A stretch of DNA of 64,000 nt from Waterburya sp. (lineage in GTDB: Bacteria; Cyanobacteriota; Cyanobacteriia; Cyanobacteriales; Xenococcaceae). Position 1 is the first letter of the stretch. Every line of letters begins with the position of its first letter. The notes below the pieces were generated by a model that saw only the letters and a list, made by a program, of their open reading frames with translations, was not told the origin of the DNA and did no database searches. The position numbers and the translations under genes were made by a program. Location: positions 2,464,001-2,528,000 of the forward strand of contig CBDCJV010000002.1 in NCBI GenBank assembly GCA_965217895.1, in the 5' to 3' direction. Below, piece by piece: positions 4,571-63,315 of the stretch.

Positions 4571-4662
4571 GAAATAATTTTACTAATTAGGCGTAGTAAA
4601 TAAAATTGTATTTCATGTTCACCCTAAAACTGACTTAAATGCTTAATGTTTAATGCTCAATG

Positions 4663-5886
4663 TCAAATATTACTGGCTTTAATTAAAACCTGTTCGTATT
4701 TTTGCCCTACCTTATCCCAAGTGTATTCCTGCTTGACGAGCGATCGCGCATTTGCCGATAGCTTTTCTCGTAGCTTGGGTTCAGAAAACAAACGACCAAT
4801 AGCATAAATATATTCTTCTAAAGTATTAGCCCGCATAGCTCTTAGGGGAACAGTTGCCCCGTCAACCTTAAACTCTGCCAAAGCGCGATCGCTCCCCACC
4901 ACGGGAACTCCTGCTGCCATTGCTTCTAAAGTGCGGTTTCGTAAGCCATATCCTTGGCGAATGGGAATTACGCAGACAGTTGCCCAATGCAGATATTCTA
5001 CAACAGAGCTAACTTCACCCGTTACAAGTATTCCTGGTAAGTTTTTTAATTCTAAAATCTCTGCTACGGGGTTTGCGCCTACTAGCTCTAAGACAGCTTC
5101 AGGATAGCGTTGGCGAATGGCGGGAAATACCTCTAGTGCCAAAAAAAGGGCTGCATCGATATTTACAGGGCTATCCATCTTACCCACAAAGACAATTTTT
5201 TGTCCTCCCTGGTTGGTAATTCGATAGGGAAACTTGTCCAAATCAACGCCGTTAGGAATCATGGTTACTGAACATTCTGACTCTAATTCACGGACAATAC
5301 GTCTATCTTTGCTTGTTACCGTCACAATCTGGCTAAATTTTTCTAGATAGCTTTGTTCGTAGCGTTTTTGCAATCCTAAATTAATTTGATCTTTAATTTC
5401 GTTATTGGAGTCTCCTGTTGCCAGTTGCTGTTTGTATTTACCGTATTCTGAAAAGTGCAGATTTAAGACCACTCCTAGCTGTTTGTGCCATTTTGGATCA
5501 ACATAAATCTCATCGCTACTATCTTCGCAGGCGATCGCTTCAAACTTATTTTGACCAACAGCTTGATTGATCCACTCTGCCATTTCAGGAGAATAATTGT
5601 CTAAGACATCAGGTGGTGTTCGCTGCTGAATAAATACTCCTAGACGTTTGGCTTTATCGAGCAATTTTAAAGGTTCAACCTTTTTGGCTACAGGAAAAGT
5701 AACTAGCTTATGTGTCTGCTTTTGTATATTTTCTACCTCCCGATCGCTAACTTCTGCACTGCGACGAGTCACTAAGGTAACTTGATGGCGACTATAAAGA
5801 TATTGCAGTAAATGAAATGTTCTTAGCTGTTTTCTGCCTTTAGTTGGTGGATAAGGAAAAGTAGAGCAGAGAATAAGGATGTTCAT
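4663..5886 (-). CDS. GT4-family glycosyltransferase
   Basis: FPYPPTKG, IPNGVD, TLEAMAAGVPVV. Confidence 0.85.
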   Translation of the reverse strand: MNILILCSTFPYPPTKGRKQLRTFHLLQYLYSRHQVTLVTRRSAEVSDREVENIQKQTHKLVTFPVAKKVEPLKLLDKAKRLGVFIQQRTPPDVLDNYSPEMAEWINQAVGQNKFEAIACEDSSDEIYVDPKWHKQLGVVLNLHFSEYGKYKQQLATGDSNNEIKDQINLGLQKRYEQSYLEKFSQIVTVTSKDRRIVRELESECSVTMIPNGVDLDKFPYRITNQGGQKIVFVGKMDSPVNIDAALFLALEVFPAIRQRYPEAVLELVGANPVAEILELKNLPGILVTGEVSSVVEYLHWATVCVIPIRQGYGLRNRTLEAMAAGVPVVGSDRALAEFKVDGATVPLRAMRANTLEEYIYAIGRLFSEPKLREKLSANARSLVKQEYTWDKVGQKYEQVLIKASNI

Positions 5887-18970: not shown

Positions 18971-18998
18971 AGTAACGAGTAACGAGTAATGAGTAACG
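18971..18998. repeat. STRR heptamer (AGTAACG)x4
   Basis: agtaacg agtaacg agtaatg agtaacg. Confidence 0.9.
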
Positions 18999-19074
18999 AA
19001 AATAGATTGTAATATTTTGCTTACGCTTGTCTTACATTTAATTTCACCCACTCACTTAATTAAATTATCAACGG

Positions 19075-19413: not shown

Positions 19414-19584
19414 ATCATCAACCCTAGCTGAATACTATTTATAGTTGTTTTCTTCTATAATTGTGGTTGATTTTAAGCTATTTTTACTTGACCTAGATCA
19501 CAATAAAATGTGATAAGTAGGCGGTTGCAATTAAATATAATCTAGAAAAGCGATCGCTGTAAATTTAAATGAAGGATAGATCTA

Positions 19585-19770
19585 ATATCAAGTTCGGATA
19601 ATTGCCTTAATACAATATGTATCCATGAAATAATTAAAACTAGGTCTAAAAAACTTGCTATCTGCACACGCTGGAGCGTGTCGCCATCGCGAAGCGATGT
19701 CGGCGTTCTCCAGAACGCGCTACTTGCTACTTTACCTACCTAAATTTAACTCTTCATCCGAACCTAATAT
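19585..19770. mobile_element. MITE with 15-bp TIRs, carrying a nested three-hairpin element
   Basis: ATATCAAGTTCGGAT ... ATCCGAACCTAATAT (13/15 inverted match). Confidence 0.7.
19666..19718 (+). repeat. Three-hairpin structured element, copy 1
   Basis: ACACGC-TGGA-GCGTGT CGC CATCGC-GAA-GCGATG TCG GCGTTC-TCCA-GAACGC. Confidence 0.85.
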
Positions 19771-19791
19771 AATTCTACGCTTGAAGTGAGC

Positions 19792-29302: not shown

Positions 29303-29425
29303 AGTTTTAAAAAGTTATAAAAATACAAACGAACAAATTAAGATGACAATTGTTAGAAAAAACAAGCCATTATTCATCCAGTCATTAAGATTCCATTCTT
29401 TAAACATTTTGTTAATTGTTAGCTG

Positions 29426-32400
29426 TTAGTTATTAGTTGTTGATTCTTGTTCTGCATTTTCTTCTTGTCTGTTACTCCCATTATGATTACTATTAGCTCG
29501 GTCTTCTGATTCTTGCTGTGTCTCTTCCCGTCTTTCTTGCTCCTTGTCTTTCTTTCTACCTCCTTTTAAGAAAGACTCTTCAAAATCTTTAATAACGATG
29601 TAAAGAATAGGTACAAAGATTAGACTCAAGACAGTTGCCACTATCATTCCGCCAAAGACCGCCGTACCCAACGACCAGCGACTTACCGCCCCAGCACCAG
29701 AGGCAATCACCAGCGGCATAAAACCGAATATAGCAGCAATTGCAGTCATTAAAATTGGTCGAAAACGTTGCTCCGAAGCGTAAATAGAAGCTTTTGTGAT
29801 ACTCATGCCCAAATCGCGGTTTTGATTGGCAAATTCCACAATTAGAATCGCGTTTTTACTCGCTATACCGACCAACATAAGCAATCCTACTTGGACATAG
29901 ATATTGTTGTCCAAAACGGGATAAACGCCTCCAGCCTGTAAAAAAGTCGCCCGAAGCCAAGTTGCACCCAATGCACCTAAGACAGACAGAGGCACGGTGA
30001 GCATGATAATTAAAGGGTCGATATAACTTTCGTATTGGGCTGCTAGCACCAAGAAAACCATCACAAAACTTAAGCCAAACACTAAAGGTGCAGAACCCCC
30101 AGAAGTTTTTTGTTCGGCGGCGGTGCTTGTCCACTCATAACCGAAACCTGGTTGCAGAGTAGCTGTAGTCGCTTCTTCCATTGCTTTGATTGCCTGTCCA
30201 GAACTGTAGCCATCGGCAGGAGAGACATTGATCTTAATCGCTGGGTATACATTGTAGTGGGTAAGAATCGGGGGAGAGGAAGTTTTCTGAGCCTTTAACA
30301 GTTCACCTATTGGAATTGAATTCCCATCACGAGAGCGCACATAGAGGCTGTCGATATCATCAGGATTACTACGACTTGCTGCTTCTGCTTGAGCATATAC
30401 GCGGTATAGCCTGCCATCTAGCACAAACTGATTGACATAGTTAGAACCAAGATAGGTTTGTAGAGTGCTAATGATTTCGTTGACATCGACATTTTGCGCA
30501 TTAGCTTTGTCGCGATCAATATTTGCTTCGAGCATCGGACCGTCAAAGGTAAAGGTGGTTATTGCTTGACCAATTTCGGGTCTTTTGCTGGCTGCGGCAA
30601 TTACCTGTTGAGTATTAGTAATTAGACCATCAATTCCCTTTCCCTGACGGTCTTCGATGTAAATTTCCGAACCACCAAAGTTACTCAAGCCATCTACAGG
30701 AGGAGCATTAACGCCAATCACTCTGGCACCACCAATATTTTGTTGAAACTCTTGGTTTACTTGTTGCAAAAGTCCAAACACCGAGCTAGAATTTCCAGTT
30801 CGCTCATCCCAAGGAATAAGCTTGGCGAATACAATCGCTTTGTTGCTATTTTGACCTTCAAAAGAAAATCCCGTCAGTCCCACAGAGTTCTGCACTTTTT
30901 TATGTCCCATAACTATCTTTGCTACCTGTTTAGTAATGTTATGGGTGTAGCTCAAGGAAACTCCTGGAGGTGCTTCAATAATGTTAATGAAATAGCCCTG
31001 ATCCTCTTCGGGAATAAATCCTTGGGGCAAACTAATATAAGTCCAGCCTGTCAGTACTAAAGCACCAATAAATACCGCGATGACCAATAGCTTTAAGCCA
31101 GTCAAAAATTCAATCAAACCTCGGTAACGATCTTTGATCCAGTCAAAGCCACGGTTAAACCGAGGAAATAGCCAGCCTAAAGGTCCTTTTACGGGTTCTG
31201 GGGGACGCAGAAATATCCCTGACATGGCAGGAGAAAAACTTATCGCATTAAAGAAAGAAAAAATCATTGCAAAAGCTATAGTCAAGCCAAACTGTTTGTA
31301 AACAATTCCCGTCGTACCAGGAAAAAAAGTCACGGGAATAAACACAGCTAATAAAACTATCGAGGTAGCAAATATTGCTCCCGCCAATTCTCCCATTGCA
31401 TCTAAAGCTGCCTGTTGAGGACGCATTCCCCGAGATAATTTACTTACTACTGCTTCGACAACAATAATACCGTCATCTACCACCAAACCCGTTGCTAGTA
31501 CACAGGCAAATAAGGTTAATTGATTGAGAGTAAACCCAAAAGCTTCTAGGGCAATCATTGCCCCAACTAGAGATACAGGAATAGCGATCGCGGGAATTAG
31601 AGTAGTACGCCAGTCCTGGAGAAAGAGAAAGATAATTAATATTACTAGGGCGATCGCTTGGATTAGAGTTATTACTATGTCTTTGAGAGAAGCATTGATA
31701 AATGAGGTGTTATCAGTAACCACTGCTGCTTTTAAACCTCTAGGAAAACTTGTTTCTTTTAATTCTGCCATTTTCGCTTTAATCGCCGAGGCAGTATCCA
31801 GGGCATTTGTCCCAGGAAGCTGATTAATAACCAATGCCACTGCGGGATCTTTTGCATCAAATACGGCTTTGGTAAAATAATTTTCTACTCCCAGTTCGGC
31901 TCGTCCAATATCTTTAACTTTAATGAGCGTACCGTCTGTTCCTACTTGTACGACGATAGCTTCTGCTTCTTCGGCTGTAGTAAAACGCCCGTTGACCTGC
32001 AACGGTAGCTGATACTGTTGTGAATCTGGTACTGGTTCTTGCCCTATCCCTCCTGTACCGACTTGAAAGTTTTGATTAGAAATTGCATCAACCACATCGC
32101 TTGAAGTTAATCCTCTAGCAGCCAATTTATCAGGATCGAGCCAAATTCGCATTGAATAGGTAGCCGAACCAACTAAGCGGAGACTTCCTACTCCTTCAAT
32201 TCGCTTGAGTTCATTCCATAAATAGCGATCGGCGTAATTATAAAGAAATACGGGGTCATAATAATATTCCCCCGCTTCATTTTTTTCGGAGTACAAAGCA
32301 TAAACCAGAGTAATACTGGGGGATTGTTTCTCAGTAGTTACTCCCGTAGAAGTTACGGTTTGCGGTAGGTTAGGCTGTGCCTGAGCAACTCGGTTTTGCA

Positions 32401-38892: not shown

Positions 38893-39197
38893 ACTCTTTC
38901 CTCTACACAGTTTTTTGCTTAGTAGCTAATGCTAAGGGCTTTAGAGCATGAAGTCTAGATGTATTTGATTAATCGTTATGTTTCACCAACGTATTTTGCT
39001 TAACTGACCAATTAAAAACAGTTCTGGATAACCATGAATTAGCCAGACACAAAGATACAGAATAAGCTGAAATTCTGGTTGTTTCGTCAGTTGAAATAAC
39101 AATTCTTGGGTAAAATAATCCTCGAAATCGTCTTAACCTGAACCGATATTAAGCTGAAATATTTACCAACTCCGAAGGAGTTGAAGTAGCAAGTAGA

Positions 39198-39251
39198 AGC
39201 CGCGTGGAGCGGCTCGCCTGCACAAAGTGCAGTCGGCGAACTCCAGTTCGC
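39198..39251 (+). repeat. Three-hairpin structured element, copy 2
   Basis: AGCCGC-GTGGA-GCGGCT CGC CTGCAC-AAA-GTGCAG TCG GCGAAC-TCCA-GTTCGC. Confidence 0.85.
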
Positions 39252-39388
39252 GCAGATAGCAATTAAGAAAAACTCCGAAGTTGGATATGCAGCCTCCTCA
39301 TTCATGAGGAAAAGGTGAAAAAATAATTCAATTCTTGAATACATGCGGGCAAGCCCTTTGTCTGACTTCAGGCAGAGGTTGAACTTGC

Positions 39389-39442
39389 AGACGCGCTTCG
39401 CGTCTGGCCGTTGCGGAGCAACGTCGGCAGCCTCCAGGCTGC
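39389..39442 (+). repeat. Three-hairpin structured element, copy 3
   Basis: AGACGC-GCTTC-GCGTCT GGC CGTTGC-GGA-GCAACG TCG GCAGCC-TCCA-GGCTGC. Confidence 0.85.
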
Positions 39443-39450
39443 GCTACTTG

Positions 39451-41262
39451 CTATCTGCTACTTGTGAACCGTTCTTCTCCTCCTAAACCAAAAGCCTCGT
39501 GAACTGCATTTAAAGCTTTGATTCCTTCAGATTCGGCAATCACACAGCTAATTTTAATCTCAGAGGTAGTAATCATTTGAATATTGATTTTTTCATGAGC
39601 TAAAGCAGCAAAAAATTTAGCTGCTACCCCTGGATGCCCGATCATTCCTGCACCAACTACGCTTAATTTGGCGATCGCTGTATCCCCTGTAACGGTGCCA
39701 CAGCCAATTTGTTGATTTAGTTCGCTAATTAGCTTACAGGCTTGCTCTGCATCTGCTTGCTCGACGGTAAAAGCAATGTCGCGAGTCGGCACATCATTTA
39801 CAATATGACAACGCTGAGATTGAATAATAGCGTCAACGCTAATATTCTTTTTCGCCAGGAGGGAAAATATTTGCGCTGCCATCCCTGGAGTGTCTGGGAC
39901 GTGGCGGATGCCAATTTGAGCCTGTTTGGTGTCTAGAGCCACTCCCCTTACGGGGGGATGTTTTCCTGGATACTTATTAACAGCTATTTCTTTTTGAGAG
40001 CTTAGATCGATGTCAAAAGCCTGAGAAAGCAAGTGTAAAGCGCGATCGCATTCTGATTCATCAATGACGCAGCTAACTTTAACTTCAGAAGTGGAAATCA
40101 TCTGAATATTAATCTTGGCATCAGCTAGAGTCTTAAACATCTTCGCCGCAATACCAGGACGACCAATCATCCCCGCACCAGAAATAGCAACTTTAGCAAT
40201 TTTGCGGTCAACCATCACTTCCGCTTCTGTAGTGGCAGCGGGATGAGTACGCAAAGAAGGAGCGATCGCTTCTGCTACTGCTTCTGCCTGTTGCAGTACT
40301 CGATTAACGACGGTAAAGGCAATGTCGTTACTGTTCCCCTCATGAATTGACTGAATAATTAAATCTACGTCAATATTACGCTGGGATATTTCCCCAAACA
40401 GACTAGCTGCCACACCAGGAAAATCTGGTACTCTTAATAAGGCAATTTTTGCCTGATCTCGGTCTACTTCTACACCGTCAACCGCCTTGGCAATTTCCAT
40501 TCCCTGTAAAGAACGAGGTTGAGGTAAACGGGATACTACTTTTGTTCCAGGGCGATCGCTCCAGCTAGATAAAACTATTAGAGGCATTCCATAATTACGA
40601 GCAATTTCCACGGCGCGGGGATGTAATACTTTTGCTCCTAAACTAGCTAACTCTAACATCTCATCAGCAGTAATTTCTGACATCAGTTGTGCAGAGGGAA
40701 CAAGCCGAGGATCGGTAGTCAAAATTCCAGGTACGTCGGTATATATTTCGCAACGATCTGCTTTGAGTGAAGCTGCTAAAGCCACGGCTGAAGTATCTGA
40801 GCCACCTCTACCTAAAGTCGTAATTTCAAAATCTTTGATGCTGCTAACTCCCTGAAAACCCGCAACTACAACCACTTCTCCTTTATCAAGGTGTCTCTGT
40901 AGGCGATCTGTAGATACCTGCAAAATTCTGGCACGATTATGTTCAGCTTCGGTGACAATTCCTACCTGCGCTCCTGTCAAGGAAATAGCTGGCTGTCCCA
41001 ATTCCTGTAACGCCATACTCAAAAGAGCAATAGTAACCTGTTCTCCTGTAGATAAGAGCATATCCATTTCCCGACGGGAAGGATTATTTGATACACCCTT
41101 AGCAAGCTTGACCAAAGTATCTGTGGTTTTTCCCATCGCCGAAACCACAACTACTAAGCTGTTTCCTTGCTTTACGGTTTTTTGCACCCTATTGGCAACA
41201 GCTTGGATGCGCTCTATTGAACCAACAGATGTTCCGCCGTATTTCTGAACAACTAAAGCCAT
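39451..41262 (-). CDS. lysC: Aspartate kinase (cyanobacterial type, four ACT domains)
   Basis: [28 protein letters not shown], duplicated ACT pairs (STSEVKVS / TTSEIKIS). Confidence 0.97.
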
Positions 41263-63243: not shown

Positions 63244-63278
63244 TAAAAGCTAAAAGCTAAAAGCTAATAGCTAATAGC
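63244..63278. repeat. STRR heptamer (TAAAAGC/TAATAGC)x5
   Basis: Read directly from the sequence. Confidence 0.9.
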
Positions 63279-63315
63279 TTTATCAATACCGATCAATGTA
63301 AATCGAAGTAATTTA

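Follow-up and report, generated by a model that had tools for sequence, protein, structure and literature searches.

The window analysed here, a stretch of 64,000 nt, carries three copies of a short three-hairpin element: copy 1 at 19666..19718 (plus strand, 53 nt), copy 2 at 39198..39251 (plus strand, 54 nt) and copy 3 at 39389..39442 (plus strand, 54 nt). The neighbouring genes, which include a response regulator with GGDEF/EAL-type matches, a TRAP permease and an aspartate kinase, are bystanders, and copies 1 and 3 sit just 3' of genes. Each copy consists of two outer hairpins around a central arm, located at 19666-19681, 19682-19702 (the arm) and 19703-19718 in copy 1, at 39198-39214, 39215-39235 and 39236-39251 in copy 2, and at 39389-39405, 39406-39426 and 39427-39442 in copy 3. 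The stems, loops, linkers and Watson-Crick pairing described for the three copies in the initial annotation were all reproduced from the sequence. The 3-nt linkers, understood there as separating the hairpins, are indeed present, but they pair with each other: CGC and TCG form two base pairs and a 1x1 mismatch at the base of the middle arm and extend this hairpin, so that the three hairpins abut without a spacer. The mismatch is a fixed C.T, found at 19684/19700 in copy 1, 39217/39233 in copy 2 and 39408/39424 in copy 3; in copy 3, the first base pair of the middle arm is broken. When folded as DNA, the window copies gave three hairpins in 5 or 6 of 6 cases and the full extended arm in 3 of 6, and as RNA the three hairpins formed in 5 of 6 strands.

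A covariance model based on 28 variants of 53 nt matched exactly these three copies in the window, with 51-73 bits (next best match, 10.7 bits). In the genome to which the window belongs (5.29 Mb, 39% GC), a descriptor search gave a total of 52 copies, to which the covariance model added three or four degenerate ones; the scan for further copies that the initial annotation had proposed was thus productive, in this genome as well as in its relatives. Independently of sequence, a genome scan for three abutting hairpins found 43 loci, of which 36 are family members, 6 are AT-rich and one is a distant relative. Three block shuffles of the genome yielded 4, 2 and 4 such loci, all AT-rich and none GC-rich, and a reversed-pattern control had 0 matches in the genome. 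The three-hairpin copies are not a chance product. Comparison with Rfam assigned the element to no family: the window gave 0 matches at gathering thresholds, and in four loci the element itself remained without a match at E values up to 0.5.

The window copies are not independent insertions into unique DNA, since all of them lie within host repeats. Copy 1 is found in a repeat of ~190 nt (19584..19773, strand unassigned, ends approximate from BLAST) that has inverted ends and an internal heptamer run. This host has six copies in the genome, three filled, one with a 16-nt collapsed element, and two empty; the exact sequence of copy 1 occurs 10 times in the genome, distributed over two kinds of host repeat. 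Copies 2 and 3 were both carried in by a single repeat of 303 nt (39167..39469, strand unassigned), further genomic copies of which are 93-94% identical. The entire 303-nt host is missing from this site in a contig of run X3, where a single letter separates 39166 from 39470. At 39451-39469, the repeat covers the final 19 nt of the aspartate kinase frame (39451-41262, minus strand), and the C-terminus of the kinase may therefore be altered. Next to a 303-nt host copy, at ~500 nt, we also found a glutamine riboswitch (RF01739, L010:897-971, 56.6 bits).

Host repeats account for much of the abundance of the element: the 52 genome copies collapse to 15 host clusters, so that most of the copy number is passive and primary insertions are much less numerous than copies. 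Many of the 52 stem from the multiplication of a ~1.1-kb composite repeat (G000 C2:1192280-1193418 and about six copies, 92-99.8% identity), which holds two elements and an apparent transposase fragment. One host site carries different middle arms between the same outer arms, pointing to conversion in place. A second three-hairpin unit of ~58 nt, with different linkers, often adjoins the host repeat of the 53-54-nt element (G000 C1:45800, C2:723191, 2109982, 4116173, 4960826 and 5170406). Short heptamer runs free of the element are also present in the window (63244-63279, 18971-18999, 29409-29441, 4638-4662).

The genome and the fetched loci together provided 138 distinct element sequences in 100 distinct contexts of 7+7 bases, which are mutually related, so that counts overstate independence. 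Elements are 49-56 nt long, mostly 53-54. The outer hairpins measure 16-17 nt in 136/138 and 137/138 elements, a constancy partly built in by the descriptors, which required 6-bp outer stems, and the middle arm 17-24 nt, with 21 nt in 110 elements. Watson-Crick pairs fill 1812 of the 1880 stem cells in 94 distinct sequences (versus 68.7% when shuffled), the others being 9 G.T and 59 other mismatches, 6 of these A.C; in the same sequences, stems 1-3 occur as 18, 13 and 9 different perfect stems. The stems covary strongly, in line with the pairing noted from the three window copies: in alignment A2 (28 sequences, selected for ≤1 mismatch), two-sided changes affect 15 of 20 pairs in all three stems, and amount to 122 cells versus 31 in shuffled and 5 in slid alignments. 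Both the constancy and the pairing figures are inflated by the demand for 6-bp outer stems and by the selection of A2 for ≤1 mismatch.

Of 101 distinct elements, taken with both mismatch bases left free, 97 retain the C.T/A.G mismatch two pairs above the foot of the middle arm; the exceptions are one correction to A.T and three other mismatches, and the 94-sequence pairing set has one C.G case at this position. The middle loop, read on the C.T strand, is GAA, AAA or GGA in 77/110 elements. Such purine triloops are specially stable in single-stranded DNA; this bias could be due to ancestry alone. The loops and the entire middle arm are found in both orientations, and outer hairpins trade ends between elements. 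Flipped 4-nt outer loops were seen in 0/138 elements. The inner side of the outer hairpins has invariant feet: read on its own strand, each outer hairpin follows G-(T/G)-C-G, and the two hairpins are in inverted arrangement. The complementary loops TGGA and TCCA, in which the initial annotation saw a possible kissing interaction, show no two-sided change across the four proposed pairs, and only 67/138 distinct elements carry both. Their complementarity is better read as a two-fold symmetry of the element ends, since each end, on its own strand, reads as the same hairpin; it also permits a rod-like alternative fold (copy 1 as RNA). Collapsed alleles of 16-17 nt, made of the first arm, one loop and the last arm, occupy seven genome sites (G000 C2:978264, 1812536, 2747203, 2426747, 2547777, 4116287 and 4524074), and their breakpoints show CT/AG microhomology, with CT on one strand. 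Flipping an outer loop would give rise to a direct repeat through which the interior is lost; these alleles could be slippage products after such a flip, or processing scars.

Among the 60 relatives of the family, a pattern search found the element in 11 (control, 0), and the covariance model in 18, i.e., 17 of 38 in the genus and one in another genus. It was not found in 42/60, absence being weak evidence because many non-carriers are fragmented; well-assembled non-carriers are G060, G061, G057 and G058. All five genus genomes assembled in one or two contigs carry it. Outside the family, the model was positive in 1/144 order genomes (best 38 candidates per genome), and an order-wide pattern search stayed at control level except for one genome, among the matches listed. 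A scan of one genome per species gave 10 matches, six of them real and all cyanobacterial, and four due to chance, without hairpins; in metagenomes, 9 stretches matched, of which 5 are real, and there was no element match in viral contigs, phages and plasmids. Records of Waterburya sp. and Pleurocapsa sp. contain the same element. The sole carrier outside the family (L151, G096:C8) holds a pair of copies separated by 1.5 kb on the same contig, one of them within a gene labelled IscB-like from its translation; this suggests that the pair came along with a mobile element, or that the contig was misbinned.

Empty alleles were sought as the initial annotation had advised, and were found. In heptamer runs they show gaps of -2, 5, 12 and 19. 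These runs present GC, five bases and GC in each unit, and because the target repeat is 7 nt long, a 5-base loss and a 2-base duplication are indistinguishable there. GC does flank the window copies, though not as the target duplication that had been proposed: in non-periodic targets, the footprint is a loss of ~5 target bases. Empty look-alikes, searched in the genome and the loci, exist for 28 of 70 non-heptamer contexts, with a best gap of 5 in 18, of 4 in five, of 6 in four and of 8 in one, and a gap of 0 or negative was never the best among these 28 non-periodic contexts. With flanks matched to within one mismatch (12 contexts), the gap is 5 in 11 and 4 in one, and in one abundant host 93/94 empty look-alikes give a gap of 5. 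For copy 2, the empty paralogous site holds five other bases where the element sits. Nested insertions into another element copy, a host of fixed geometry, likewise cost it 5 nt (L037, L067, L265 and L274; also L089, read by eye), while the footprint of a further one (L273) did not resolve. The flanking dinucleotides are identical in just 6/65 non-heptamer contexts.

Insertions into genes lead to the same footprint. The genes hit are TnpB-like, IscB-like, relaxase-like and reverse transcriptase (RT) genes, labels that we presume from the translations. In L003, a 53-nt copy adds 16 codons in frame to a TnpB-like gene when compared to an 81% identical homologue, and the TnpB-like gene of L099 has 16 added codons versus 3/5 homologues, and 17 versus 2/5. 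Open frames cross nine 53-nt copies and one 54-nt copy (38 contexts each); as a 2-nt duplication or a blunt insertion would break the frame, the in-frame 53-nt copies favour a 5-base loss. The two 49-nt copies (L239 and L278), whose middle arm is short, each take the place of 4 nt within an open frame, that of an RT-like and of a TnpB-like gene, respectively, L278 at nearly the same site as the independent 53-nt insertion of L003. The footprint is not strictly five bases, as 10/28 contexts have another best gap, mostly with poorly matched flanks, and one well-matched 49-nt copy clearly replaces four. We have high confidence in the element being a mobile cassette whose footprint is the replacement of 5 bases.

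The specificity for heptamer repeats that the window copies seemed to display does not extend to the family: heptamer runs make up only 27/100 target contexts, and insertion sites also include other repeats, genes and the element itself. The target preference is weak and symmetric, of the form C-N5-G, with C at -1 in 77/100 and G at +1 in 78/100 contexts. A polarity imposed by the middle arm was rejected, as target information is equal in either orientation (3.88 bits), and the mutual information between element and target (52 related contexts) revealed no clean base-pair rule. We also discarded a hairpin loop as the target: the excess of flank complementarity (positions 3, 4, 6 and 7; at position 3, 31 vs 20 in 65 contexts, p 0.002) is only modest, the contexts are related, and nested insertions hit stems. 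HIP1, present at 5798 sites on the main contig of the genome, is not the target either, GATC occurring in 0/52 joined flanks.

These observations support the view, already put forward in the initial annotation, of a structure-conserved, sequence-variable, non-autonomous mobile element, with further copies, empty alleles, covariation, and no enzyme found in the window. For its movement, we propose a scheme that, taken as a whole, has about an even chance of being right: folded DNA would be pasted by a two-fold symmetric enzyme into a target cut five bases apart. Recognition would act on folded DNA, probably on the C.T-mismatch strand, and a protein dimer would read the two outer hairpins and the mismatch, and not a guide sequence. 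The fixed spacing points to a measuring enzyme, and the symmetry of both the C-N5-G preference and the element ends suggests a dimer. The target would be nicked after C on each strand, giving a 5-nt 5' stagger; the element ends would then be joined to target 3' ends, and the 5-nt flaps trimmed by repair. A loss instead of a duplication is expected if a 5' stagger is combined with joining to, or building on, target 3' ends, and such a stagger leads to target deletion in target-primed elements (PMC6895275, in excerpt). The enzyme would be encoded elsewhere, and the element copied and pasted. Paired stem changes and loop flips may arise in one step through template switching during replication, known to yield paired changes and inverted loops (PMC8794818, in excerpt), and covariation alone is therefore no proof of selection. 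Yet, the mismatch stays uncorrected and the footprint fixed, which argues for selection for mobility that would maintain the arm geometry and the mismatch; there are hairpin-binding enzymes that require a stem mismatch (PMC8266576, in excerpt).

A DNA intermediate seems to be favoured over an RNA one, yet the 5-nt deletion is equally compatible with target-primed reverse transcription, and the assembled contigs examined showed no free intermediate. An RNA copy could be primed on the nicked target by a borrowed RT, e.g., that of a group II intron, and a second-strand cut upstream of the first nick would delete five bases, an alternative that we find unlikely. An RNA route was reportedly proposed by Elhai in 2008 for the small dispersed repeats (SDRs) of Nostoc and relatives. 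RT genes are at hand, with 8 matches in the genome (three of identical scores, in 516-codon frames) and matches in 54/60 relatives, the three hairpins also fold as RNA, and target-primed reverse transcription with a 5' stagger deletes target bases (PMC6895275, in excerpt). However, RT genes are as common in genomes without the element, their near-universal occurrence in the family being uninformative, both ends of the element are precise, and half elements are rare (3 lone right hairpins). The lack of G.U-type enrichment, the loops flipped both ways together with the whole middle arm, and the purine triloops speak for DNA.

A passive spread, in which the element has no mobility of its own, larger repeats and gene conversion disseminate it and template switching keeps its stems, is doubtful. 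It would agree with the collapse of 52 copies to 15 host clusters, the arrival of copies 2 and 3 with their 303-nt host, and the exchange of middle arms at one host site; loop flips are a signature of template switching (PMC8794818, in excerpt), and flank recombination moves the yeast GC42 cluster (PMC4478555, in excerpt). On the other hand, the 100 distinct contexts have unrelated flanks, genes and the element itself included, with a near-constant loss of five bases; homology-driven conversion yields no fixed spacing, and template switching would repair the mismatch that is kept in 97/101 elements. For primary insertions, passive spread is already largely refuted. Our preferred scheme of pasted folded DNA leaves this process its part in multiplying the host repeats.

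A REPIN- or PATE-like nature of the element is rather improbable; in that case, a Y1 HUH transposase (RAYT, or TnpA of IS200/IS605) would mobilise it, guided by the four inner-foot bases of each outer hairpin. The two inverted hairpins, each after G-(T/G)-C-G, would suit such an enzyme, Y1 enzymes read hairpins and stem mismatches, and the collapsed alleles break at CT, the dinucleotide cut by RAYT (PMC8266576, in excerpt), yet these breakpoints are equally plain microhomologies. A RAYT-like gene is present in the genome, but this sole Y1 match is frameshifted and lies beside its own, different, GTAG-footed palindrome. Its relatives occur in 6 of the 12 clear carriers (G000, G002, G009, G011, G013, G019, G020, G023, G056, G069, G071 and G073) and in 19/49 other genomes, and Y1 in general, matched in 52/60 relatives, is uninformative, with no match in carrier G020, a single-contig genome. 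The element has no GTAG tag, and none of its bases cleanly predicted a target base in the 52 related contexts. IS200/IS605-type insertion removes no target bases, unlike the loss of ~5 seen here. Finally, an RNA structure repeated for a host function, as a terminator or mRNA stabiliser, is very improbable in spite of the strong folds and the position of copies 1 and 3 just 3' of genes, as Rfam gave no match, the element was not found in 42/60 relatives, copies 2 and 3 are missing with their host repeat from the same site in another sample, and copies lie within other mobile elements, genes and the element itself.

The SDRs provide a first comparison among known systems. SDR1-8, reportedly described by Elhai in 2008, are said to be 21-27 nt long, to keep their structure through compensatory changes, to be inserted in heptamer runs, minitransposons and themselves, and to have no known enzyme. 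In these features, our element resembles them as a tiny, gene-less cyanobacterial repeat whose structure is kept by compensatory changes, and which sits in heptamer runs, host repeats and itself. The SDR catalogue may describe something closer. Folded single-stranded DNA is read by shape in integron attC sites, IS200/IS605 ends and PATEs, which have fixed unpaired bases and a variable tip, and neither integron attC nor IS200/IS605/PATE insertion removes target bases. The shape recognition proposed here, the fixed mismatch and the variable middle arm are reminiscent of these systems. Unlike these systems, the element ends at the hairpin foot without a subterminal linker, and IntI was found in 0/12 clear carriers; PATE insertion takes place beside a short target, without base loss or gain, whereas that of the element costs ~5. 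It differs from class II MITEs by the absence of target-site duplication (28 non-periodic contexts) and by its two ends, each a hairpin of its own: these vary in sequence (18 and 9 stem types) and are symmetric in shape and loop only. From hitchhikers of IS110, which are guided by a bridge RNA, it is distinguished by its varying ends, and the queried IS110-like subfamily does not track with it.

Further differences from SDRs lie in the size of 53-55 nt, the three hairpins and the fixed mismatch, SDR5 having 21 nt (PMC13756078, in excerpt), in an almost complete confinement to another family, and in the lack of a link to HIP1 (GATC 0/52), within which SDR5 inserts precisely, between bases 3 and 4 (PMC4390886, in excerpt); SDRs are also cited in PMC3116915 (in excerpt). 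REP/REPIN sequences mobilised by RAYT are likewise short, non-autonomous palindromic units with an inverted hairpin pair (PMC3116915, PMC8266576, PMC3733652, all in excerpt) and a conserved stem mismatch, needed for recognition in their case (PMC8266576, same excerpt). In contrast to them, judging from these excerpts, the element has no GTAG or CGTC tag, its stems vary freely and five target bases are lost; moreover, it was not found flanking the RAYT-like gene of this genome, and genes of that kind do not track with it. The GC clusters and double-hairpin elements of fungal mitochondria (GC42) are GC-rich multi-hairpin islands of 40-55 nt in AT-rich DNA, structure-constrained, with shuffling of units and, as far as the excerpt goes, no identified enzyme (PMC4478555). 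They differ in having direct repeats (AG or ACT) on either side, interpreted as duplications (PMC4478555, same excerpt); the element is bacterial, deletes target bases and changes both sides of its stems. R2-type retrotransposons leave the same kind of target deletion, by way of a 5' stagger and attachment to the 3' ends of the target, but these eukaryotic RNA elements are kilobases long, encode an RT-endonuclease and use a single fixed site (PMC6895275, in excerpt), whereas the present element is gene-less, has a weak symmetric target and shows no sign of RNA-type pairing. A literature search found no description of the element, within a coverage that leaves out most subscription papers and the SDR catalogue. 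We conclude that it is real, a new member of the cyanobacterial class of tiny mobile repeats encoded by structure, and that its replacement footprint is unusual. Genes gain 16 residues in frame through its insertion, and its copies form nested mosaics of repeats that escape sequence searches.

For the study of how gene-less repeats below 100 bases move in bacteria, the 138 natural variants define the relevant features; together with the fixed, unusual footprint, they make the enzyme findable. The HUH, RAYT and RT genes whose co-occurrence the initial annotation had suggested examining do not track with the element. IntI was dismissed for the absence noted above, no telomere resolvase was found in the genome, and no IS91-type Y2 enzyme was found, in a search whose control likewise matched nowhere; the genome also has ten tyrosine recombinases, outside the families profiled. 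An autonomous partner with the same ends was looked for among 3 lone right and 18 lone left-like hairpins, none of which bounds a gene-bearing element, the three right ones being degenerate or internally deleted copies. No partner protein recurs beside copies (genes between close pairs; 150 loci), and the only gene types standing out near them are TnpB-like, often the target, and IS110-like. A tentative possibility, for which we would give clearly less than even odds, is an undescribed kind of DNA transposition. Here, a 53-base cassette defined by its three-hairpin shape and one mismatch would take the place of five target bases through an enzyme not belonging to the DDE-free candidates examined (Y1, RAYT, IntI, RT and IS110). 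If true, this would make the target a branched junction, a 53-nt copy adding 16 codons in frame. An enzyme of low target preference that exchanges five bases for a short DNA coded by shape would represent a new integration chemistry, and a possible tool.

The frameshifted RAYT-like gene (L001:1462-1960) is followed by its GTAG-footed palindromes at 1990-2050, forming a separate REP system. The IS110-like genes belong to a distant subfamily, rejected as candidates with 8/12 carriers versus 16/49 other genomes and no match to the query in carriers G073 and G056. Three of the seven IS110-like loci of the genome lie <1.5 kb from a copy (17 of 20000 random draws, a post hoc test), with a host gene intervening in each of the three neighbourhoods, and across genomes 1/30 IS110-like loci carries a copy. 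Distant IS110-family recombinase genes at L298:595-1815, L299:1345-2670 and L213:1710-2891 have a conserved small frame and a structured non-coding leader upstream, and in L213 the element is a plain insertion into this leader, upstream of the IS110-like gene.
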